The position numbers and the translations under genes were made by a program. Below, piece by piece: positions 2,939 to 30,295 of a stretch of 36,325 nucleotides of DNA. Below the pieces are notes generated by a model. The model was not told the DNA's origin. It was given only the letters and a program-made list of their open reading frames with translations, and ran no database searches. The stretch is taken from the UHGV virus genome UHGV-0211079; one strand, written 5' to 3'. The stretch comes from a virus. Every line of letters starts with the position of its first letter. Within the stretch, counting starts at the first letter, position 1.

Positions 2939-3004
2939 GATAAAAGAAAAATATAATTAATTCAACAATCGTCAGCGATAAGTAAATGGAGGGATAAGGT
3001 AATT

Positions 3005-3220
3005 ATGGAAAAATGTAAAGCATGTTCCGACTATTTCAAATGGGATGATGAAGTAATAGAAGTGGATGATGAGTATTATCACAAAGACTGCGTAACTCTC
3101 TATCCAACAGGATATGTCGCTTTTTTAGATGATGACTTCCTCGGAGAAACTGAAAATGCAGATGGAGCTACGGCTTATAGTATTTTGGAAGAAGGTCAAT
3201 ATATAGATGACGAAGATTAA
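3005..3220 (+). CDS. hypothetical Cys-containing acidic protein
   Basis: RBS ggagggataagg, then ATG. CxxC...C pattern. No family recognised. Confidence 0.5.
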   Translation: MEKCKACSDYFKWDDEVIEVDDEYYHKDCVTLYPTGYVAFLDDDFLGETENADGATAYSILEEGQYIDDED

Positions 3221-3425
3221 GAGTAGGAATAAGCAAATGAATGATAGTCTATCCATCATCATAATACTGTTATCGATCGCAGGCCTAAGTTGGCTATCCT
3301 ATACAATTGTGGATAAACAGAAGCAGATTGAACAACTTCAAGAGCAACTGCAACACGAGCAATTCAAATACAAAATGTTATATCGTGATCCAATGGTAAA
3401 AAAAGCAATCGAGAGTGGAGGATAA
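3207..3425 (+). CDS. hypothetical membrane/coiled-coil protein
   Basis: ATG overlaps the previous stop. N-terminal TM segment followed by a QLQEQLQ coiled coil. Confidence 0.45.
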   Translation: MTKIKSRNKQMNDSLSIIIILLSIAGLSWLSYTIVDKQKQIEQLQEQLQHEQFKYKMLYRDPMVKKAIESGG

Positions 3426-3427
3426 GA

Positions 3428-3523
3428 ATGACAGTTGCAGTGTTAGGGTTTACAGGATTCGTGTTATTAATGATTGCTGCAGTCGTTGTAGGAAAGAAGA
3501 TGGACGAAAGAGAAGGCAAATAA
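3428..3523 (+). CDS. small membrane peptide (31 aa)
   Basis: ATG at 3428 after RBS gagtggagga. Hydrophobic sequence MTVAVLGFTGFVLLMIAAVVVGKK. Below the ORF-track length cutoff. Confidence 0.3.
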   Translation: MTVAVLGFTGFVLLMIAAVVVGKKMDEREGK

Positions 3524-3617
3524 AAAAGCATTAAGCAGTCGCCCAATGCCCTACAAAATAATGATTTTGTACCCGCCAAGGTAATTTCATTATACCAAAT
3601 AAAGGGGCGATTGAGCA

Positions 3618-4031
3618 ATGATGCTATTAAGAGAGATAGATTTTCGTAGGACTAGGCAGAATGCAAAAAGCATTTTGAGAAATTATCGTCGGTTGGAGCG
3701 GATTGCTGGTCGATCTAAGATTGATGTCCGCTCACCGATCATCACTGATATGCCTAAAACACCAAGTAACGGCAACAAGTCAGAAGATGCGATCATCCAG
3801 ATGATGGATGCGGAGGCAGAAAGGGATGCTATTGTAGTAGCTCTTTTGGCGTTGGGAATAGATAGTCGCCAAGTTTTGTATTATTCGTATTGCACTGTTG
3901 ATCGATACTCAAATGTTGGAATTGCTCAGCAAATGGGTTACTCGGTCAGGACAATCGAAGACTACAAGGCAACTGCCTTGATTGAATTCGCTGAAGCCTA
4001 TCGAAAAGGAAAATTAATAGAATATTGCTGA
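3618..4031 (+). CDS. ArpU-family phage late transcriptional activator
   Basis: N-terminus MMLLREIDFRRTRQNAKSILRNYRRLERIAG matches the ArpU family signature. Sits in the usual position immediately upstream of the terminase genes. Confidence 0.8.
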   Translation: MMLLREIDFRRTRQNAKSILRNYRRLERIAGRSKIDVRSPIITDMPKTPSNGNKSEDAIIQMMDAEAERDAIVVALLALGIDSRQVLYYSYCTVDRYSNVGIAQQMGYSVRTIEDYKATALIEFAEAYRKGKLIEYC

Positions 4032-4263
4032 ATCGATGTGGTTTTTATGTGGAAATACTGCGGTTTTTAAATGATTTTACGTAGTATTATTGTATTATCA
4101 ATTATTGTAAATAACAGGGCGCACTCCTTTATGATTGTTGGCAGACCTCCTTTCTGAATTTCATTTTCAGCGCCCTGTATTTAAACTAAGACGGCGACAA
4201 AAAAATTATAAATAGAATGGAGTTGAATTCACTCCTTTTCTTCATTCGCTAGCCGTCTTTTTT

Positions 4264-4337
4264 CAGGAATTGGCTCAGTTTGGTAAAGCGCTACTTTTGG
4301 GCAGTAGAGAGCGCAGGTTCGAATCCTGCATTCCTGA
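4264..4337 (+). tRNA. tRNA-Pro (anticodon UGG)
   Basis: Hand-folded cloverleaf. 7-bp acceptor stem caggaat/attcctg with the C1:G72 pair characteristic of bacterial tRNA-Pro, and discriminator A73. D-loop contains GG. Anticodon stem ctact/agtag with loop tt-TGG-gc (U33, G37). 5-nt variable loop. T-stem gcagg/cctgc with T-loop TTCGAAT. No encoded CCA. Confidence 0.75.
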
Positions 4338-4388
4338 TTGGGAGTTGTCAATTAGATTACTCACATGATCTTTGGCGCTTCCTACTAA

Positions 4389-4412
4389 ACAGTCCTTTAG
4401 GGCTGTTTTTTT
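4389..4412 (+). terminator. intrinsic terminator downstream of tRNA
   Basis: Hairpin acagtcc-ttta-gggctgt followed by TTTTTTT. Confidence 0.5.
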
Positions 4413-4479
4413 GATTTTGTGGCAACGTTATTGCCTTTAGGGTAAAATATCATTAAAAAAGATTATAGGAGTGACTTAT

Positions 4480-5076
4480 ATGAATAACCCTATTATTAAT
4501 CCTGATGTTTGGTCTCCAGTTGGATTTGATGTATACAGACAAACAATATCAACACAAAAATATACTTGCGGATATTGTGTTCGTGATGTTGGAGTACAAA
4601 AAGGATTACAAGGCTACACAAACGACGGAGATATTATCTTTGCATTAGTCTGTTCGAATTGTGGTTGTATTTCAATGTTAAGTGAAAATGGTTTTCAATT
4701 ACCTGGGTCCCTATACGGAAAGGACATTGATAATTTACCTCAAGAAATTAAGTACTTATACAATGAGGCAAGAGAATGTTTTAAAGCTGGGGCATATACA
4801 GGTGTGGTTTTACTTGCTAGAAAGTGTTTAGCAAATGTTGCAATTTACTTTGGTGCAGAAGATGGACAGAAGTTTATTATCTACGTTGACTATTTAACTA
4901 ATAATGGATATATTGCACCAAAAAGTAAAAAATGGGTGGATGAAATCAGAAAAGAAGGTAATTCTGCAACCCATAATAAAGAACCCAAAAATAAAGAAGA
5001 GGCAACGAAAATTTTAAGATTTCTTGAGATGCTTCTTTTGATTAATTTTGAATTCAATGATTTAGAGTTGGAATAA
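4480..5076 (+). CDS. zinc-ribbon + DUF4145-like (possibly HEPN-related) domain protein; accessory/moron gene
   Basis: ATG at 4480 after RBS ataggagtga (the ORF track begins at an upstream GTG at 4471). N-terminal CGYC...CSNCGC zinc ribbon. C-terminal ARKCLANVAIY...IRKEGNSATHNKEP...ATKILRFLEMLL resembles DUF4145 from memory (R-x7-H motif). Own terminator downstream. Confidence 0.55.
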   Translation: MNNPIINPDVWSPVGFDVYRQTISTQKYTCGYCVRDVGVQKGLQGYTNDGDIIFALVCSNCGCISMLSENGFQLPGSLYGKDIDNLPQEIKYLYNEARECFKAGAYTGVVLLARKCLANVAIYFGAEDGQKFIIYVDYLTNNGYIAPKSKKWVDEIRKEGNSATHNKEPKNKEEATKILRFLEMLLLINFEFNDLELE

Positions 5077-5914: not shown

Positions 5915-7220
5915 GATTGACATCCAAAAAGAAGTAAATCCTCATTTCAAGTCAGTTTGGATCAGTAAGAAACCATACAACATCCTACGAGGTGGACGGA
6001 ATAGTTTCAAATCGTCTGTCATTGCGCTCAAGCTTGTTTTTATGATGGTTGGATACATTATGACCAGAAGAAAAGCAAACGTTGTAATCATTCGTAAGGT
6101 GGCAAATACAATACGTGATTCAGTTTTCTTAAAAATCCAGTGGGCGCTTGGAAAATTCTTTCTCTTAGATCAGTTCAGCTGTACTGTTTCTCCATTTAAA
6201 ATCACACATAGGAAAACAGGTTCTACGTTTTATTTTTATGGCCAAGATGATTTTCAAAAGCTGAAATCTAACGACATCGGGAACATCATCGCTGTATGGG
6301 TCGAAGAAGCTGCAGAGTTTAACAGCGCAGAAGAATTTGACCAAATGAAGGCTACGTTTATGCGGCAGAAGCCTGTAGATGCCAAGCAAGTTCAGTTCTT
6401 TTATTCATACAACCCTCCAAGAAATCCGTATCACTGGATTAACGAATGGACCAATGAATTAGAAGGACATAAAGATTACTTGATTCATTCATCCAGCTAT
6501 AAAGATGATGCTTTAGGCTTTGTTACGCAGCAAATGATAGATGAGATCAACCGGATCAAAGAAAATGACTATGACTACTACTTGTATCTTTATGAAGGCT
6601 TGCCAGTTGGATTCCAAGACAATGTGTACAACGTTGAAACATTCAGAAAAATAGTAGATTTACCTAGCGATGACTATGTCACCGCTATTTTTTATTCCCT
6701 TGACGGTGGTCATGCTCAGTCAGCAACAACAGTTCTTTGTTTAGGATTGACGGCAAAACAAAAAGTCGTATTGCTAGACACTTACTATTATTCACCTGCC
6801 GGAAAAAGCGTGAAGCTTGCACCTTCCCAGCTTTCCACAGAGGTGCATAAGTTCATTTCTAAAACACTTGAAGATGATCGGTGGAAGAATGCTCAAGTTA
6901 TTAATAGAACGATTGATAGCGCTGAGGCGGCTCTTAGAAATCAGTATTATCTCGATTATCATATACGCTGGAATCCAGTCGCTAAGAAAGATAAACAAAC
7001 CATGATTGACTTTGCGACAAATTTATTTGCGCAAGGTCGTTTTTATTATCTCGATACAGAAAGCAACAAGATTTTCTATGAAGAACATAAGCACTACCGG
7101 TACAAAGAAGGTACTGCCGATACGGATAACCCGGTCGTAATCAAAGAAGATGACCATACCTGTGATGCATTTGAATATTTCTGCGTAGATAATGCATCTA
7201 TTTTAGGAATAGCAGTCTAG
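5907..7220 (+). CDS. terL: terminase large subunit (PBSX/XtmB-type)
   Basis: ATG at 5907 with RBS ggggtg; overlaps the terS stop. The ORF track start at 5814 would overlap terS by 100 nt. Walker-A-like GGRNSFKSSV, and acidic nuclease-domain residues near the C-terminus. Confidence 0.9.
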   Translation: MNRIDIQKEVNPHFKSVWISKKPYNILRGGRNSFKSSVIALKLVFMMVGYIMTRRKANVVIIRKVANTIRDSVFLKIQWALGKFFLLDQFSCTVSPFKITHRKTGSTFYFYGQDDFQKLKSNDIGNIIAVWVEEAAEFNSAEEFDQMKATFMRQKPVDAKQVQFFYSYNPPRNPYHWINEWTNELEGHKDYLIHSSSYKDDALGFVTQQMIDEINRIKENDYDYYLYLYEGLPVGFQDNVYNVETFRKIVDLPSDDYVTAIFYSLDGGHAQSATTVLCLGLTAKQKVVLLDTYYYSPAGKSVKLAPSQLSTEVHKFISKTLEDDRWKNAQVINRTIDSAEAALRNQYYLDYHIRWNPVAKKDKQTMIDFATNLFAQGRFYYLDTESNKIFYEEHKHYRYKEGTADTDNPVVIKEDDHTCDAFEYFCVDNASILGIAV

Positions 7221-8750: not shown

Positions 8751-9899
8751 ATGGCAATCACTCAACGACAACTAGACATTAAATCTGCTGCAATACAAGA
8801 TTCTTACTTAACTCTTGAAGAAGAAATTATGCAGCTAGTTGTTGATCGATTAAAGATTAAAACTAATGCAGAACTCTCCAAGGATACTGTTTTTCAGTGG
8901 TATCTTGAAAAATTGGATCAACTGGGGCTACTTAACTGGGATACAATCAATGAGTTGGTTGAGGAAACCAACGGTGTTACCAAGAATGAGCTAGCCGATA
9001 TTGTTACAAAAGAAGGCTACAAAAAGAATCTGCAAGAAAACAAGAAACTTGCTAATTTGGCCAAAACACCCGTTAAAGAATGGACTAACTTGGATCAAAT
9101 ACTCAACCAATATTTCGAAAGTCAATGGTTAGATTTTGAGAATCATATCAATCAGACACTTTTGTCTACCAATTATCAAGTTAACTCAATTGCAAAGATG
9201 TATCAGCAAGTTCTGAATGATACGGTCGCAAGAATCATCGGGGGTCTGGTAACGCCACAGAAAGCTTTTAGAAGGGCAATTTACGAGATGGTTCAAAAAG
9301 GGATTGATGTCAGCCTAAAAGACAAGTCTGGCAAGACGTGGACTCTTGAGACGTATGTCCGGACCGTGATTAAATCAACAACAGGCACTGTATTTAATGA
9401 TTTGAGGATCGAAAGAGGTATAAGCGAATATGGAATAGTTACAGCTCTTATGAGCCATCATCCGGCGGCTCGTGACGCTTGTAGCAAAATCCAGGGCAGA
9501 TATGTTCTGATGATTCCCAAGAATCAAGCTCCAGAAGAATTCAAACATTTACCTAGCGTATATGACTATGGTTGGAAGACACCTGCCGGATGTAACGGTA
9601 TTAATTGTAATCACCGTTGGTATTCTCAACTACCTATGGAAGATACTGGCATGAAAGATCCAGTTTCTCCTGAAGTTGCTCAACAAAACGCTAAAATTAT
9701 TGCTAAACAACGAAGATTAGAGCGATCAATTAGAATGGCTAAGAAGTCGCTCAAGGCTTCGGAATGGATAGGTTATCAAGAAGATATCGAACACTTTAAA
9801 TCGATTGTACGAGCAAGACAAGCTGTCCTGCGTCAATTTATTGAAGATAACAAAACTCTTTTACATCGATCATATGACCGGGAACAAGTTTATTCATAA
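8751..9899 (+). CDS. minor capsid / head morphogenesis protein (Phage_min_cap2 / SPP1 gp7-like)
   Basis: Position after the portal. About 380 aa. Confidence 0.55.
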   Translation: MAITQRQLDIKSAAIQDSYLTLEEEIMQLVVDRLKIKTNAELSKDTVFQWYLEKLDQLGLLNWDTINELVEETNGVTKNELADIVTKEGYKKNLQENKKLANLAKTPVKEWTNLDQILNQYFESQWLDFENHINQTLLSTNYQVNSIAKMYQQVLNDTVARIIGGLVTPQKAFRRAIYEMVQKGIDVSLKDKSGKTWTLETYVRTVIKSTTGTVFNDLRIERGISEYGIVTALMSHHPAARDACSKIQGRYVLMIPKNQAPEEFKHLPSVYDYGWKTPAGCNGINCNHRWYSQLPMEDTGMKDPVSPEVAQQNAKIIAKQRRLERSIRMAKKSLKASEWIGYQEDIEHFKSIVRARQAVLRQFIEDNKTLLHRSYDREQVYS

Positions 9900-23271: not shown

Positions 23272-23298
23272 GAACACACTTGTTTAAGTGTGTTTTTT
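23272..23298 (+). terminator. intrinsic terminator ending the tail operon
   Basis: Perfect 9-bp hairpin aacacactt-gttt-aagtgtgtt followed by TTTTTTT. Confidence 0.7.
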
Positions 23299-23315
23299 TA
23301 TTGGGTGGTGAAAGA

Positions 23316-23558
23316 ATGCCAGAAAAAGATGACCTACTTTGGAGGGAAGTTTTACAGCGTTTGACTAGAATTGAGGAAAACACTAAACATGTTGACTTAA
23401 TAACTAGCAAAGCCAACAAAGCTCTAATCAAAGCAGAAGAAAATGAAAAAGACATTGCGGAAATTCGAGAGAATCAAAAATGGACATGGCGGACAATTGC
23501 CGGAATGGGCGTGTCCGTCATTGTTTATATGCTAACAAAATTTCTAGGAGGGCAATAA
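23316..23558 (+). CDS. XhlA-like holin-associated membrane protein
   Basis: ATG at 23316 after ggtggtga. N-terminal coiled coil and a single C-terminal TM segment. Confidence 0.5.
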   Translation: MPEKDDLLWREVLQRLTRIEENTKHVDLITSKANKALIKAEENEKDIAEIRENQKWTWRTIAGMGVSVIVYMLTKFLGGQ

Positions 23559-25024: not shown

Positions 25025-25561
25025 ATGGATTCAGTAGGAATTAACGCCGGCTATAAACCATCTTTGGTAAAATTCTATTTTCATGATGAAAATAGGAATG
25101 AAATCAATAATATTGTAAAAATAAATGTAGGTGAATCAATTGAATTATCCGTAACAGCGATATTTACAGGAATAAATAGCGAATTTTTAAACTACAGCGA
25201 ACCCAGGGATACAAGATTTATCAACCTGTGTGTCTATGAGAAAAATAGGAGCGGAAAAGGCTATAAAATAATTAAGTTTTTTTCATTTAATATTGACTAT
25301 TTTTATAGTAAACAAGATATTGTAGAAATTTCAGCACCGTTAGTAACAATAACTGAAAATACCCAACCACTTCAGGGAGAATTTGAAGGCATAGAATTTG
25401 ATAAAACGTATAATTATAGAGACACTTTTATGGCTTTAAAAATATTTTACTCTTCTGAAAAAGTTAAAAATATTGAAGAATTAGATAGGCTCTTTAATAA
25501 GGTAAGCGAAGCTGTTTTAGATACAAAGCTTCCATTTATGGTGGTGGGAGAAAGTGCCTGA
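25025..25561 (+). CDS. hypothetical moron protein A (178 aa)
   Basis: ATG at 25025 after gggagtga (the ORF track started at TTG 25010). Very AT-rich codon usage unlike the structural genes. No motif recognised. Confidence 0.5.
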   Translation: MDSVGINAGYKPSLVKFYFHDENRNEINNIVKINVGESIELSVTAIFTGINSEFLNYSEPRDTRFINLCVYEKNRSGKGYKIIKFFSFNIDYFYSKQDIVEISAPLVTITENTQPLQGEFEGIEFDKTYNYRDTFMALKIFYSSEKVKNIEELDRLFNKVSEAVLDTKLPFMVVGESA

Positions 25562-25940
25562 AAAAGCTCGTGGCCAGGTTATTAGTTTACCCCAATTTGA
25601 AGGTCTCAGTATTTCAGATGGAAGTGGCGGAGGAGATGATGGCCAAATGACAAAATACGTTACAAAGCAAGAATTCGATTTAACAGTAAAAGAATTAACT
25701 CACCAAATTGAAATGAATCAAGAAAGATTAAATTCCAAATTAGATTCAATAGGTCAAAAAATAGATACTGGTGGAGAAAAAAATTCAGAAAAAATAAGTA
25801 GCGCAAAAGAAGTGCTGTCTCAAAAAATAGACTTTTTAGATACAGATATAAAAAAAACAGATTCTAAAACAAACTGGATAATTGGTTTAATTTTAACGTC
25901 ATTTTTAATTCCAGTATTATTAAAATACTTAGGAATTTAA
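25554..25940 (+). CDS. hypothetical tail-anchored membrane protein B (128 aa)
   Basis: GTG overlapping the stop of protein A. Gly-rich N-terminus, central coiled coil, single C-terminal TM segment (NWIIGLILTSFLIPVLLKYLGI). Confidence 0.5.
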   Translation: MPEKARGQVISLPQFEGLSISDGSGGGDDGQMTKYVTKQEFDLTVKELTHQIEMNQERLNSKLDSIGQKIDTGGEKNSEKISSAKEVLSQKIDFLDTDIKKTDSKTNWIIGLILTSFLIPVLLKYLGI

Positions 25941-25945
25941 AAATA

Positions 25946-25969
25946 CCCCTTACTCGTTCGAGTAGGGGG
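25946..25969 (+). terminator. GC-rich hairpin ending the moron transcript
   Basis: 10-bp stem ccccttactc-gttc-gagtaggggg. Only a weak U-tract on plus; TATTTTT follows on the minus strand. Confidence 0.4.
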
Positions 25970-26036
25970 ATTATATTCATTTTACTTGCAGTAATTTAGT
26001 TTATGCTATAAATTAGTAGATGCGTGCAATACTTTA

Positions 26037-26100
26037 CGAAGAGTAGTTAGGCGGTGGAAACTTGGGGAAGTGCGCCTAACACTCTTCGATTTTTATTTTA
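26037..26100 (+). repeat. long stem-loop + U-tract element, copy A
   Basis: 16-bp stem with a 1-nt bulge (cgaagagtagttaggcg / cgcctaacactcttcg), 19-nt loop containing cttggggaag, followed by ATTTTTATTTTA. Confidence 0.5.
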
Positions 26101-26203
26101 TCATTATTTCATTTTAATAGATATTATTGTTTAGAATATCGTCTAAAATATTTTTATGTTTTTCAGCATATTATAATTGGGAATTCATGACACAATAGAG
26201 AAA

Positions 26204-26237
26204 CTCCTTACTCAATTAGAGTAGGGAGCCCTTTTTT
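26204..26237 (+). terminator. intrinsic terminator (possible 3' end of a small RNA)
   Basis: 10-bp stem ctccttactc-aatta-gagtagggag followed by CCCTTTTTTC. Stem sequence is related to the 25946 hairpin. TATAAT lies about 30 nt upstream at 26172-77. Confidence 0.5.
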
Positions 26238-26314
26238 CATTGCTTCAAATTCAAATCATTTGCAAAAAATAATCTTTTTTAATATGTTTATATTACAACA
26301 TGCATTTACTCTAA

Positions 26315-26388
26315 GAAGAGTGCTAGGTGATTAAGAAGATTGGGGAAGACTATCTTAACGTATGCCTAACACTCTTCGTTTTCTATTG
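26315..26388 (+). repeat. long stem-loop + U-tract element, copy B
   Basis: 13-bp stem gaagagtgctagg / cctaacactcttc with one C.A mismatch. Loop contains ttggggaag. Followed by GTTTTCTATTG. Shares the 15-nt gcctaacactcttcg with copy A. Confidence 0.45.
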
Positions 26389-26418
26389 TAACATAGTTAT
26401 GATTGAATAGATGCTTGC

Positions 26419-26432
26419 GACGAAATTTCGTC
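26419..26432. promoter_or_regulatory. perfect 14-bp palindrome GACGAAATTTCGTC (operator-like)
   Basis: Exact 7+7 inverted repeat in the intergenic region. Confidence 0.3.
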
Positions 26433-26520
26433 AATATATATTCAAGATAGGCTATTGAATTATCAATCAAAATCGATTACACTTTATTTACCTAGAACCT
26501 TTCATTTTTATTTCTGTGAA

Positions 26521-26549
26521 CCCACTCTCCCCCGAGAGTGGGTGTTTTT
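26521..26549 (+). terminator. intrinsic terminator
   Basis: 9-bp stem cccactctc-cccc-gagagtggg followed by TGTTTTTA. Confidence 0.55.
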
Positions 26550-26607
26550 AACTACCAATGTAGATCCTTATATGTAATTTTTAGTATTTTAAAAAATGAT
26601 TTACTAA

Positions 26608-26637
26608 TTGTAACTATAATAGTATTATTGGTATAAT
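26608..26637 (+). promoter_or_regulatory. sigma-70 promoter for the PanA-like/toxin operon
   Basis: -35 TTGTAA (26608-13), 18-nt spacer, -10 TATAAT (26632-37). Confidence 0.5.
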
Positions 26638-26670
26638 TTTGTTAGAATAATAATAAAAGGAGTGATAAGA

Positions 26671-27156
26671 ATGTTGAAAGCTAAAGATATTGCTGAATAT
26701 TTTTTACGAAAAGACGTTGATGGCAATTGCTTTAATTTCAATTTACGCGAAGAAAACGGACATACATTTTATGAAGGAAACGCTCGGTTAAATAAATATC
26801 TGCATATGTCGCAAAATTTATTTCTTGCTAAATACGATACACTATTATTTGAAGATAAATTAGTTGCTTATGATAACGGAGCAGTTGTTCCTTCAGTACA
26901 AAGAAATTTTTCAGTTCTTGTAGCAAAAAAAAATGAACCTTTTTTGCCGGAAAATGTTAAAGAATTTTTAGATAAAGTGTATATTTTTTTCTCGAATGCT
27001 ACTATTGATGAGCTGATTGAACTATCGCACGAGGATAATGAATGGATTGAAAAAAATAGAAACAGATTAACAGGGCAAGAAATGAATACATTATCACGAT
27101 CTGATGAGTATAAACAACAGTATTCAGATGCTTTGTTTGTAATTGATAGGATGTGA
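26671..27156 (+). CDS. Panacea-domain (DUF4065, PanA/SocA-like) putative antitoxin
   Basis: ATG at 26671 after the strong RBS aaaggagtga. N-terminus KDIAEYFLRKD, and NARLNKYLHMSQNLFLAKYDTLLFEDKLVAYDNGAVVPSV matches the Panacea pattern L.K.L...Q....LF.E...A...G.VVP.V as recalled. Confidence 0.65.
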   Translation: MLKAKDIAEYFLRKDVDGNCFNFNLREENGHTFYEGNARLNKYLHMSQNLFLAKYDTLLFEDKLVAYDNGAVVPSVQRNFSVLVAKKNEPFLPENVKEFLDKVYIFFSNATIDELIELSHEDNEWIEKNRNRLTGQEMNTLSRSDEYKQQYSDALFVIDRM

Positions 27157-27601
27157 AGCTTTGTTTGTTGTAGGTCAAGTTCTTTCTCTAAAAATTCGTT
27201 TTAATAATAATGGGGTGATTTCTAATAATAATCACCCCTATATCATTGTAGATGTAGATACTATCAACAATCTTATTGAGATAGCTCAAATCGATAGTTT
27301 AGAATTTAAACCACATAAAGCCGCTTTTAAATCTAACCACGTAATATCGTGTTCAGATCCAAATGAAACCGTTATAGATAAAGATAGCTTTGTGCAGATG
27401 GATAATATATTCAAGGTTGATGTTTGTCCAGAATTACTCAAATGTAGAAGACAACCTGATAAATTATCGGATTTTAAACTTAAAAAGCTAATAGAGGCAT
27501 ATCAAGAATACCAAAGTAATAATGAAATCGATGAAATAAAGATTGTATACATGAATAGGGAAGAAATTTGTAGTTTAAATGGTCTTTCTTTAAGCGCATA
27601 A
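27143..27601 (+). CDS. putative toxin partner with weak MazF/PemK-like (CcdB/MazF fold) similarity
   Basis: TTG at 27143 (or 27161) overlaps the upstream gene by 14 nt; first in-frame ATG is only at residue ~86. GQVLSLKIRFNNNG....HPYIIV resembles the Kid/PemK N-terminus (GEIWLVSLDP...RPVLIV). SFVQMDNIFKVD resembles the C-terminal S..ADQIRTID motif. About 50 aa C-terminal extension. Confidence 0.4.
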   Translation: MIGCEALFVVGQVLSLKIRFNNNGVISNNNHPYIIVDVDTINNLIEIAQIDSLEFKPHKAAFKSNHVISCSDPNETVIDKDSFVQMDNIFKVDVCPELLKCRRQPDKLSDFKLKKLIEAYQEYQSNNEIDEIKIVYMNREEICSLNGLSLSA

Positions 27602-27632
27602 AATAATATTTTTAGTTTGAATATATACTCCA

Positions 27633-27657
27633 AACCACTATATTTAGTGGTTTTTTT
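27633..27657 (+). terminator. intrinsic terminator after the TA-like operon
   Basis: 8-bp stem aaccacta-tatt-tagtggtt followed by TTTTTTT. Confidence 0.6.
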
Positions 27658-27909
27658 GCACAAAAAAGCACAGCGTATTTACATACACTGCGCAAGTGAA
27701 ACTATGTTTCTACATCGTAATCATTATAGCGTATTTAACGTTCTATTTAAAGACTCGAATTCAATCATAATCTTCGTTTTGCCAAGTACACTATATTTCC
27801 GCACAACAAACTGTTTACGATCGTTAAACTCACCAGCCACCACAACCTGCATTCCTTCATCCACATCGGCTAGAAAATTAAACTATGTGCAGCAATCAGA
27901 CAGTTTACA

Positions 27910-28179
27910 TTATCCAGCGAGAACCGAACCAAAGGGGTCCTCGACATTTTCAACACTCGTATCTTCGAAACTACACCTTTCAATGATTTCATAGTGATCG
28001 CCTCCGTATCGTTGTATATAGTAACTATAATCAGTTTTGCCTAACGTTAGATTGACATAATGCTCAACGCAACGAGTTCCAAAAACACACTCTTGAGATT
28101 CGGATATAGAATCCGGAAACTCTTCTAGAAACTCTGAATAAGAAATATAGCCCTGCTCATACTGACTGATTACATTCAT
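27910..28179 (-). CDS. hypothetical acidic protein (89 aa)
   Basis: ATGA overlap with the upstream YolD-like gene. Followed in the same frame by two stops and further open sequence (possible decayed longer gene). Confidence 0.4.
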   Translation of the reverse strand: MNVISQYEQGYISYSEFLEEFPDSISESQECVFGTRCVEHYVNLTLGKTDYSYYIQRYGGDHYEIIERCSFEDTSVENVEDPFGSVLAG

Positions 28180-28535: not shown

Positions 28536-28638
28536 AATTATCACTCCTCACGGAAATTATACGAACGTTTGTTCGTTTTGTAAAGCGAACAGATCTTTAA
28601 ATTGTAACGTGAGAACGAGTAGAAAAGATGAGAATTTT

Positions 28639-28662
28639 TGGTGATAGTTTCGGTGATAGCGA
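28639..28662. repeat. arm-type direct repeat copy 1 (tggtgatagtttcggtgatagcga)
   Basis: Internal tandem of ggtgatag. 22/24 identical to the copy at 28903. Confidence 0.55.
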
Positions 28663-28902
28663 AAAGAAAATATCGAAATGATAGAAAAGAAAAATTAGAG
28701 GAGAAACGTTGATATAATGGTATTTTTAAAATAGAGAAATACTAGAAAAAGGGTAGAATGTATAAGAAAAACATGTTCGCATTGCTTGGCAAACCAGGCT
28801 TCGAAGAGCTTGCAAAAGAATTGAACGAACGTCTATAAATCAATGCTTTTACCACTTATATAAATTGGTGGTGAACGAAACATGTTCGCTTTGATTCATA
28901 AC

Positions 28903-28926
28903 TGGTGATAGTTTTGGTGATAGTGA
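28903..28926. repeat. arm-type direct repeat copy 2 (tggtgatagttttggtgatagtga)
   Basis: See copy 1. Located just 3' of the integrase stop. Confidence 0.55.
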
Positions 28927-28932
28927 CAGAGT

Positions 28933-28957
28933 AAAAGCACTCATTGTGAGTGCTTTT
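28933..28957 (+). terminator. hairpin + T-tract overlapping the integrase stop
   Basis: aaaagcactca-ttg-tgagtgctttt followed by TTTTCTTTCG on the plus strand. Probably blocks plus-strand read-through into int. Confidence 0.4.
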
Positions 28958-30164
28958 TTCTTTCGCTTTCGATGTAGTTTTCGAACTGTTCCATGGACCT
29001 CTTTTTGACCTCTGGAGAAATATGGGCATAGATTTGAGTTGTTGAAATATCCTTGTGACCAAGAAAGTCTTTTATGTCTTCTAAGGACAATCCAGCTTGA
29101 CGAGATCGGACAGCAAAAGTATGGCGGCCATCGTGGACTCTAATTTTCGGCAATTCAGCTTTTTTAGCAATCCGATTAAATGCGCCATTCACTGATCGAT
29201 CACGGACAATTTTCCCTTTGTATCTCTTGCTGGTTTGCAAGAAGATAAATTGTTCTCCATCTTCAGTGGAAGGGAAGGTACCAAAGATGTTTAAGATATG
29301 ATTTCTAAAAGCAAGCAGAGCTTGTTTACTTCTTTTGGTCATTGGCATGCTTCTGACTCCTGCCGGTGTTTTCGGATCGTCTGTAATAATTGCATTGACG
29401 TTTTCACCTTTTTCAACTGCTCCTAAACGTTCTCTTTCAATGCTTATCATGTTCCCGCCAAAGTCAATATCTTGCCACTGTAATCCCATTACTTCTGATT
29501 TCCTCAATCCTTGATCGAAGATTAATAGGAAAAAGGGGTACCACAAAACCTCAGATTCTTTTTTCGCAAACTCTAGAAATCTATCTGCTTGCTGCAAATC
29601 GTAGTATCTGACAGATTCCTTTTTCTCAATCATTCTTGGAAACTCAACAAACTGAGTAGGGTTTTCCTTTATATATCCTAATTGAATTGCTTTTTTAAAA
29701 GCATTGCTGAGAGTAGCATTTACGCTTTTGACAGTAGTGATGGACAACCCTTGACCACTTCGACCTAGTCCTTTCTTATTTAACAGCATATTAATGAACT
29801 TTTGATGGTTGGCTCGTGTGTATTTGTTTAAAGAATATTTCCCTATATAGGGTTTAATATACATTCGTATATTCGCTCTGTGGACCACACGAGTGCCTTC
29901 TTTTACAGCCTGCTTATAATTAGTTACCCAATCCTCAAGAAATTCTTCTATTGTTAAATTCCGAGGATTTTCTTTGAAATATTCCTCGGATGCTATTTTT
30001 CCTTCAATAATTTTGGCATAACTATTTGCTTCTTCATAGGACTTAAATCCTTTTTTGTGTATCTTGTTTTGTTTACCAGTTCCGGGATTAATTCCATTAG
30101 AAACGAAAACTTCATATCTATATTGTTTTGTTTTCTTCAAATAGTATTTCTTTATAGAAGCCAC
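28941..30164 (-). CDS. int: tyrosine-type site-specific integrase
   Basis: C-terminal catalytic motifs RVHDGRHTFAVRS...LGHKDISTTQIYAH (R..H.R...Y). Likely GTG start at 30164 with RBS aaaggag 7 nt upstream (MASIKKYYLKK...); the track ATG at 30191 lacks an RBS. Confidence 0.9.
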   Translation of the reverse strand: MASIKKYYLKKTKQYRYEVFVSNGINPGTGKQNKIHKKGFKSYEEANSYAKIIEGKIASEEYFKENPRNLTIEEFLEDWVTNYKQAVKEGTRVVHRANIRMYIKPYIGKYSLNKYTRANHQKFINMLLNKKGLGRSGQGLSITTVKSVNATLSNAFKKAIQLGYIKENPTQFVEFPRMIEKKESVRYYDLQQADRFLEFAKKESEVLWYPFFLLIFDQGLRKSEVMGLQWQDIDFGGNMISIERERLGAVEKGENVNAIITDDPKTPAGVRSMPMTKRSKQALLAFRNHILNIFGTFPSTEDGEQFIFLQTSKRYKGKIVRDRSVNGAFNRIAKKAELPKIRVHDGRHTFAVRSRQAGLSLEDIKDFLGHKDISTTQIYAHISPEVKKRSMEQFENYIESERKKHSQ

Positions 30165-30295
30165 TAGAATTCTCCTTTCGTAATTTCGCATAATAAATTC
30201 GAATAATCGAGTGATTTCAATCGAATAATCACTTGAATATTAAAGAATTCGAAGTTTTTTGTTAATTATCCGAACGTATGTTCTTTTCGATTTAA

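Follow-up and report, generated by a model that had tools for sequence, protein, structure and literature searches.

Hairpin units with an invariant G-rich loop in a protein-free gap of an Enterococcus phage genome: a family of candidate small-RNA genes

The viral genome UHGV-0211079 (36,325 nt; this whole stretch is referred to here as the window) is a single circularly permuted temperate siphophage genome from the Enterococcus casseliflavus/gallinarum group, and genome matches place the phage or its units in E. casseliflavus, E. gallinarum and E. entomosocium. The subject of this work is a gap without protein genes at 25941-26661, and, within it, two related hairpin units, A and B, which are candidate small-RNA genes. 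The left end of the window carries a DnaD-like initiator and RusA, the right end RecT and a YqaJ-type exonuclease. From the left, the initiator and RusA are followed by a phage-borne tRNA-Pro (UGG; about 4263-4338, identified with an Rfam covariance model), the terminase, the structural genes, a clear XhlA (23280-23558), a holin, an amidase and two small open reading frames (ORFs) ending at 25940. XhlA is weakly resembled by a second coiled-coil membrane protein, the product of the last ORF before the gap (25554-25940; Pfam E = 0.002). To the right of the gap lie a PanA (SocA_Panacea) pair at 26662-27601, two minus-strand ORFs, a 400-bp non-coding stretch, a tyrosine integrase gene (28941-30191, minus strand) and the lysogeny region. 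The gap thus lies between the lysis module and the end carrying the phage attachment site (attP) and the integrase, the usual accessory ('moron') site of a temperate phage. An earlier note, made from the sequence alone, had described the gap as free of ORFs of at least 60 amino acids on either strand, and this is the case: the longest ORFs in 25941-26661 encode only 34-40 amino acids, and none of at least 60 overlaps it. The gap contains four terminator-like sites, versus 0.5 expected from shuffled sequences.

Unit A is centred on a hairpin at 26037-26088 (CGAAGAGU(A)GUUAGGCG / CGCCUAACACUCUUCG; 16 bp, one bulge), followed by GAUUUUUAUUUU, with a folding energy of -24.8 kcal/mol (z = -3.0). 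Its plus-strand promoter (25986-26014), composed of TTGCAG (25986-25991), a 17-nt spacer and TAAATT (26009-26014), is 96-100% conserved over 31 class-A loci and is overlapped by TGcTATAAA at 26004-26012. Candidate small RNA A would be about 80 nt long (26020-26099, plus strand), with a leader (AUGCGUGCAAUACUUUA), the hairpin with its apex CUUGGGGAAG at 26061-26070, and a U-tract at 26089-26099. Hairpin B, at 26315-26377 (-24.1 kcal/mol), has a 13-bp outer stem with one C.A mismatch and an inner stem, and is followed by GUUUUCUAUUG. The promoter of unit B (26260-26288, plus strand) consists of TTGCAA (26260-26265), a 17-nt spacer and TATGTT (26283-26288); the E. gallinarum copy L058 retains the two hexamers (TTGCAA-N17-TATGGT) despite an overall match of 72%. 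Candidate small RNA B would extend over about 94 nt (26295-26388, plus strand), with the leader ACAACAUGCAUUUACUCUAA, the hairpin with its inner stem, the apex AUUGGGGAAG at 26339-26348 and a U-tract. The ends of both candidate RNAs are inferred from the promoter and the U-tract. A and B each combine the stable stem and U-rich tract of an intrinsic terminator, and T-tracts are present in most members of the family to which they belong, a few of them being weak; with a U-tract after it, the hairpin would also terminate its own transcript.

The two units have an identical 15-mer, GCCTAACACTCTTCG, at 26074 and 26364 (three matches occurred in 0 of 100 shuffles), the motif TTGGGGAA at 26062 (A) and 26340 (B), and a shared TTGGGGAAG. 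Their homology reaches about 35 nt past the stems (78% over 49 nt), and A and B are, judged by their sequences, paralogues of one family. The earlier note was accurate in describing A as a 16-bp bulged stem and B as a 13-bp stem, each with a U-tract, and in reporting an identical 15-nt 3' arm and a common loop motif; its spacing of 290 bp holds for the 3' arms but not from stem to stem, since B starts 278 nt after A.

Related copies were sought in several ways. Scanning IMG/VR with the 15-mer returned A in three contigs and B in one. A pattern made from the 5' arm and loop recovered 31 true loci, with a complementary 3' arm in each; with both arms fixed and the loop left free, 5/5 Enterococcus genomic copies and 29/29 viral loci had the TTGGGGAA tip; and a pattern made from the loop and downstream box, with the stem left free, gave 13 further true loci, some with new stems, the 14th new match (L073) being a chance match. 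A covariance model, R1, identified 63 copies (48 distinct) at an expectation value (E) of <=1e-7 in 566 kb of related loci from about 50 contigs, together with weaker, more diverged copies; candidate RNA A scores 94.9 bits in this model and candidate RNA B 57.8 bits. Some loci contain arrays of copies, with six in L049 and five each in L051 and L052, all in one orientation per locus and with no ORFs of note between the units. These arrays (L049 8059-12057, L051 9760-12675 and L052 1719-5178; about 2.7-4 kb) are nearly ORF-free and lie at the right ends of prophages; a block of three units (X3-X4-X5) is conserved, and the other units change order between loci. A B-like unit with a promoter, an identical tip and a downstream palindrome is present at 1605-1687 of L058 (Enterococcus gallinarum NBRC 100675), about 120 nt past the sortase gene of a pilin cluster, with no phage genes in the surrounding 6 kb examined; it may be a chromosomal copy or what remains of a prophage.

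These units match no known family. The covariance scan proposed in the earlier note was run with Rfam 15, and the only match in the window at gathering threshold was the tRNA-Pro (4264-4337), with none in the gap; a permissive search (E<=10) of the gap and the L049 array gave no more than 29 bits (best E 0.0099), far under the thresholds and indistinguishable from noise. BLAST searches of the region against sequenced phages and plasmids gave no match. The units do not reach the copy numbers of dispersed repeats such as BOX or EFAR, with 1-2 matches per genome in three Enterococcus species, mostly at prophage ends, in an arms-only scan of one genome per species with a strict pattern, which makes for a limited test. 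The A/B family is thus an undescribed family of candidate small-RNA genes, 75-105 nt long, carried by prophages of the E. casseliflavus/gallinarum group.

The hairpin varies in its stem and not in its tip. Pairing is preserved in 96.5% of the cells of the model alignment, and 7 of the 15 stem pairs have changed on both sides, compensatory substitutions of the kind expected in a stand-alone small-RNA gene; this is also the outcome of the check for stem covariation in related prophages suggested in the earlier note. The pairing and covariation score was matched by 0/500 shuffles, and pairing falls to 32-59% of cells when the 3' partners are slid by 1-3 columns. Examples include UUAGGC/GCCUAA versus UUAGAU/AUCUAA, and UAUUAGG/CCUAAUA versus UACUAGG/CCUAGUA or UAUCAGG/CCUGAUA. 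The tip, (C)UU-GGGG-AA(G), is a short helix closed by four G residues. It is kept across different inner stems, such as UUAAGA/UCUUAA (B), ACAAAAG/CUUUUUGU (E. gallinarum L058) and CAGAAAACUU/AAGUUUUUCUG (L028 type), and one subtype, GAGCAATGG..CCATTGCTC (GAGCAAUGG...CCAUUGCUC), combines an unrelated stem with an unchanged CTTGGGGAAGT tip. TTGGGGAA occurs 79 times in 439 kb, versus about 10.6 expected (an approximately seven-fold excess), and 63 of these 79 occurrences are in hairpins. Its retention across unrelated stems and its over-representation in hairpins indicate selection on the sequence of the loop, for which a plain terminator would have no use.

The flanks point to transcription from the plus strand. 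All 14 unrelated classes of upstream sequence contain TTGnnn-N17-TAnnnT on the plus strand, ending 19-27 nt before the stem, and each unit would therefore have its own promoter at a conserved upstream position, like a stand-alone small-RNA gene. Shuffled flanks averaged 0.74 of 14, with 4 at most, and the reverse strand and the opposite flank each gave 0/14; match-count scoring of promoters is uninformative in AT-rich DNA, and it is this positional test that is decisive. The predicted transcripts begin 15-20 nt before the stem, with a recurring leader containing UGCA (GCGUGCAAU, CAACAUGCAUU, ACGUGCAC). Non-Watson-Crick variants in the lower stem comprise five G.U and no A.C pairs when read on the plus strand; calling the strand from folding energies is confounded by the G-rich loop, and such stem-limited counts are weakly informative. 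A coding explanation was rejected: the common 3' arm and tail of A and B fall in different reading frames, the small ORFs around the two units are not kept in homologues, and no conserved hydrophobic peptide was found on either strand. Covariation, the invariant tip, the promoter at a fixed distance and the different reading frames support, for A and B, the suggestion in the earlier note that the gap holds non-coding or regulatory RNA genes, and we consider A and B to be probably plus-strand small-RNA genes, an identification that is reasonably firm.

Several observations weigh against this reading. The homologues are all drawn from a single, narrow group of phages and hosts; many copies are therefore not independent, and the counts overstate the number of independent events; the search patterns also imposed parts of the arms and loop, which the reciprocal scans offset. 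The transcript ends of A and B are inferred rather than mapped. Over the whole stem, excluding the top pair and the bulge-adjacent pair, G.U pairs outnumber A.C pairs by only 12 to 8. About 50 nt past the U-tract are as conserved as the hairpin, and an RNA ending at the U-tract leaves this conservation unaccounted for; in 13 of 21 classes, these downstream bases form a minus-strand extended -10 box (TGnTAnAAT) at 6-9 nt from the stem. With regard to targets, the loop complement CTTCCCCAA is absent from the window, leader and loop duplexes within the phage do not exceed shuffled controls, and the best loop duplex, in the large terminase gene (6818-6839), ranks second among 31 against shuffled queries, which is not significant. 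A four-base loop is also small for a kissing contact. The terminase segment concerned, TGCACCTTCCCAGCTTTCCACA (6818-6839), pairs with the loop region of RNA A at 18/22 positions (-27.3 kcal/mol).

The extended -10 boxes raise the question of whether the functional RNA is made from the minus strand, or whether the two strands form a cis-antisense pair, which seems unlikely. Such an RNA, with a C-rich tip (CUUCCCCAAG, sometimes two), would start at the hairpin base, end in class A at 25946-25969, have the plus-strand RNA as its antisense partner and act like the Firmicute small RNAs with C-rich loops that pair with ribosome-binding sites. The boxes (TGATAAAAT, TGTTACAAT, TGCTACAAT, TGGTAAGAT) vary only at positions tolerated in a -10 element, but a T-rich terminator tail, when reversed, looks like TAAAAT through composition alone, and a TTG-type -35 element is present in 0/14 classes versus 14/14 on the plus strand. 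The hairpins to the left of class-A units carry left A-tracts and would thus be better terminators on the minus strand, whereas most of the non-A classes have no minus-strand terminator. The uniform conservation of the block 25973-26150 is consistent with a minus-strand RNA, as is the retention of TAYAAT in the RNA2 module (see below) where the plus-strand TATAAT is lost. Several upper-stem A.C mismatches would be G.U pairs on the minus strand, but the wobble pairs of the lower stem favour the plus strand by 5 to 0, and no conserved minus-strand ORF or target was found. It is less probable still that the hairpins are mere intrinsic terminators or insulators closing the late operon and separating accessory modules, with a tip reflecting shared descent and promoters belonging to the neighbours. 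Every copy does have a strong stem and a T-tract, some have upstream A-tracts that give them a bidirectional look, and copies are located at the module boundaries where phage mosaics break. However, terminators need no fixed loop sequence, and the tip is invariant across unrelated stems; with its own promoter 19-27 nt upstream in 14/14 classes, the hairpin would end a transcript of little but leader and hairpin; the arrays of 5-6 units contain no genes to terminate; and class A already has a separate hairpin behind the lysis gene.

Two further explanations were considered. The RNAs might titrate an RNA-binding protein, for instance of the CsrA type, which binds GGA in hairpin loops, the hosts being motile enterococci and multiple copies raising the dose. 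The tip contains GGA, each RNA has one or two GGA-containing motifs (a CsrB/RsmZ-type sponge would carry many), several variants have a pair of G-rich motifs spaced by 10-15 nt (GGGGGAAGCUUGGGGAAG, UUUGGGGAAGUUUCGGGGGAAG, and, in A, GGUGGAAACUUGGGGAAG) and the family is multi-copy, but GGGGAA differs from the usual A(N)GGA context of CsrA sites. A literature search on CsrA in E. casseliflavus found nothing, and the reported antagonist of CsrA in Firmicutes is the protein FliW rather than an RNA; titration is very unlikely. The elements could also be DNA sites (attachment, recombination or cassette sites, a packaging signal or a miniature mobile element), to which we give the least credence of all. 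Modules change places between loci, the bulged hairpins are reminiscent of recombination sites, and in L059 no more than about 600 nt separate units from the junction of prophage and host; nevertheless, the elements have a low copy number, are tied to prophages and match no plasmid or sequenced phage, module breakpoints fall at terminators, outside the hairpins, and the promoter evidence favours transcription. The attachment site itself is to be sought elsewhere. Two pairs of arm-type repeats, GGTGATAG (28640/28652 and 28904/28916), flank about 250 bp beside the integrase gene, and similar GGTGATTG repeats adjoin host DNA in L059 (about 6880-6920), so that attP, with arm-type sites, likely lies at about 28586-28940 and not in 25941-26661; the gap was rejected as attP on these grounds. 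A 46-bp piece of the window (28540-28585) also occurs in L014 and L002. Phage phiEf11 integrates into the 4.5S RNA gene (PMC12540744); its ffs core gave no match with up to 8 substitutions allowed.

Other identities were considered and dropped. For a type I toxin-antitoxin system (par/Fst-like), there is no conserved small hydrophobic toxin ORF and A and B are in different frames; the minus-strand ORF 25864-25980 loses its start codon in L057. For a type III system (ToxIN-like), the gap contains no tandem repeat and no same-strand toxin gene follows in other loci; the only tandem array nearby (25842-25874) is inside the upstream ORF. A mimic of the tRNA-Pro(GGG) anticodon loop was also discarded, as the flanking bases form no anticodon stem. 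Nor was a likeness noticed to familiar CRISPR repeats, as a solitary repeat acting as an RNA anti-CRISPR might show.

Small-RNA genes are the preferred reading for A and B, and the remainder of the gap holds further candidate units. After hairpin A, there is a conserved plus-strand box, P2 (26098-26127; TTATCA-N18-TATTAT), the bases of which provide, on the minus strand, the extended -10 TGATAAAAT abutting the stem of hairpin A; one hairpin subtype carries TTAACA-N18-TATAAT at the P2 position. P2 precedes a small unit of about 100 nt, RNA2 (26134-26237, plus strand), which includes TATAAT at 26172-26177 and ends at a terminator (26204-26228) with its T-tract. The RNA2 module (26130-26245) is 75-95% identical in about 20 loci, behind two different hairpin subtypes. 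In the alignment of homologues, TTCATGAC at 26187-26194 is invariant, and the palindromic ATTATAAT beside it is ATTGTAAT in 6/16 loci, leaving a -10 box on the minus strand only. The TATAAT at 26172 and the strong terminator at 26204, which the earlier note had combined into a small RNA, are both present, but this box is poorly conserved on the plus strand (TGTAAT in 6/16 homologues), and the conserved promoter of RNA2 is more likely to be the predicted TTATCA-N18-TATTAT at 26098-26127.

Unit C (26398-26549, plus strand) comprises a -10-like TATGAT (26398-26403), a palindrome or hairpin, GACGAAATTTCGTC, at 26419-26432, corresponding to the perfect 14-bp palindrome noticed earlier at 26419, and a terminator with a CCCC loop (26520-26543). 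On the 5' side it is similar to unit A in promoter and leader (repeat family D5), and among the other loci the complete unit is found only in L017. In L058 the palindrome is equally far from the hairpin, and units of L031, L045 and L025 have a related leader, GCGAC..GTCAAT, that forms a small hairpin; the palindrome is most likely the 5' stem of a transcript, or an operator. The terminator belongs to a family (26520-26543; L025, L039, L049 7919-7943, L052 and L059 at about 7270) with the stem (G)CCCACU(C/U)U../..GAGUGGG and a CCCC-containing loop. The version in L049 and L059 holds UCCCCAAG, the exact complement of CUUGGGGA in G-loop units, a complementarity that may be a coincidence or may mark a partner. 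C-loop terminators do lie near G-loop units, as at 26520-26543, and their four-base loop would be a weak partner, tetraloop-tetraloop contacts being doubtful.

On the left, a hairpin at 25946-25969 closes the lysis-module ORF 25554-25940. With an A-tract on its left and a poor T-tract on its right, it is a better terminator on the minus strand, or bidirectional, and is the left boundary of module A; homologous hairpins are present in other loci. The two further terminators placed by the earlier note at 25946 and 26521 correspond to this hairpin and to the one at 26520-26543, and the relatedness of the 25946 and 26204 stems is borne out by repeat families D7 and D13. The best explanation of the gap, given these elements, appears to be a row of self-contained, protein-free, plus-strand transcription units, or 'non-coding morons'.

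Comparison with other phages suggests how this arrangement arose. L001, L002 and L014, in which homology with the window begins at 25969, have module A only (25969-26240), joined directly to a homologue of 27755-28179, whereas L017 has modules B and C only (26231-26549, 98.7% identical), joined to a homologue of 27651-28179. Because A and B occur singly at the matching position in other phages, the window can be read as two alternative modules in tandem, with an inserted PanA cassette. The breakpoints are at terminators, not within hairpins. In L057 (E. casseliflavus NBRC 100478), a 1.7-kb insert (2995-4681) separates the homologues of window positions 26195 and 26199; it contains three minus-strand ORFs, a lysin gene reduced to its 3' end, and additional copies of terminator families (CCCTTACTC..GAGTAGGG and CCCACTCT..GAGTGGG), which point to recombination at terminators. 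The PanA cassette (26662-27650) consists of an ORF with a SocA_Panacea antitoxin domain (26662-27156), an overlapping ORF (27143-27601) and a terminator at about 27632-27655, and has a strong plus-strand promoter of its own (26608-26637; TTGTAA-N18-TGnTATAAT), separate from the RNA units. It is absent from L017 and L025, in which the homologue of 27651 onward comes immediately after a unit of B type or a related one, and is probably a mobile toxin-antitoxin cassette and an unrelated insertion. PADLOC and PHROGs returned nothing for the ORFs flanking the gap, including, for PADLOC, the PanA pair. The earlier proposal of a larger defence locus formed with the flanking operons is therefore unsupported, as the units are independent of their neighbours, which differ elsewhere. 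A second recurring non-coding element, TTTTTTGCAcAAAAAAGCACAGCrTAT..CATAC..GyGCA.GTGrAACTATG, a predicted imperfect hairpin always situated just past a terminator, is found at 27646-27739 of the window, at 9790-9852 and 11440-11537 of L049, at 7721-7785 of L059 and in about 12 other loci.

How such RNAs might act can be sketched from their parts. Each gene would have a housekeeping-type promoter (TTGnnn-N17-TAnnnT), a single-stranded leader of 15-20 nt, usually with UGCA, a long bulged hairpin and a U-tract, and the RNAs would be trans-acting products of the prophage. Contact would begin at the exposed G-rich tip, which would meet either a C-rich stretch of some host or phage transcript or a C-rich regulatory RNA, the putative partner motif being (C)UUCCCCAA(G), in 5' untranslated regions or small RNAs; paralogues would differ in specificity through their variable leaders and stems, and the outcome would be the control of host genes or of competing phages. 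We know of no C-rich small-RNA partner in enterococci. A trans-acting mechanism via the G-rich apical loop is offered tentatively, by analogy with other bacterial RNAs. It is a more speculative, and rather doubtful, idea that rapidly diversifying G-loop small RNAs, numbering up to six at a single prophage end in motile enterococci, titrate either C-rich regulatory RNAs of the host or an RNA-binding protein, or pair with opposite-strand C-loop RNAs, and thereby reprogramme the lysogen or exclude related phages. The presence of as many as six diverged paralogues in one array suggests that diversity is selected for, as would be expected of elements engaged in conflict between phage and host or between phages.

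The accessory regions of prophages are commonly screened for protein genes. Here, a seemingly empty 720 bp is densely filled with conserved and structured non-coding units, which are equipped with promoters and pass from phage to phage as modules. To our knowledge, very few enterococcal small RNAs have known roles; if expressed, these units would add a family of phage-borne regulatory RNAs, and, if the proposed role is correct, they would provide lysogenic conversion by RNA only, with no protein component. The invariant GGGG tip is a simple experimental handle, and the covariance model can be used to annotate such units in Enterococcus genomes.

The A/B units share features with several known systems. 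Like ordinary intrinsic terminators, they have a GC-containing stem followed by a T-tract, but they differ from them in their invariant loop, dedicated promoter just upstream and gene-free arrays. The antisense RNAs Sok, CopA, RNA-OUT and par RNA II of the Enterococcus plasmid pAD1 present a recognition loop on a long stem, together with a single-stranded tail. The resemblance to these fast-pairing RNAs lies in the 5' tail, the long bulged stem, the small loop starting with UUGG (which fits a YUNR U-turn) and the U-tract; however, no toxin ORF, replication gene or transposase was found opposite or adjacent to the A/B units. In Listeria, LhrC1-5 are tandem sibling small RNAs with C-rich UCCC motifs, which are chromosomal and stress-induced. 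They too are side-by-side paralogues, each with its own promoter and terminator, with a common short loop motif and otherwise diverged sequences, whereas the A/B motif is G-rich on the plus strand and the genes are phage-borne. Prophages of pathogenic Escherichia coli are reported to encode small RNAs and anti-small RNAs that are Hfq-dependent, in Gram-negative hosts (PMC4104026). These are also small non-coding genes in prophage accessory regions, acting there on host RNA networks, and they bear no apparent structural resemblance to the A/B family. The stand-alone small RNAs RosA of Bacillus subtilis (10.1101/814905) and RsaI of Staphylococcus aureus (10.1101/278127) use a G-rich region to bind C-rich small RNAs, the partners in these systems being RoxS, FsrA, RsaE and RsaG (10.1101/814905, 10.1101/278127). 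The present RNAs have no sequence or Rfam similarity to RosA and RsaI, and are phage-borne, shorter, multi-copy and formed of a single hairpin. They nevertheless resemble them as stand-alone Firmicute genes with their own promoter and terminator and conserved, exposed G-tracts in a hairpin domain (the GGGG tip is invariant, and some members have two G-tracts), and RosA and RsaI may be considered the closest functional analogy for the GGGG tip, a possible role of the A/B RNAs as sponges being suggested by that analogy.

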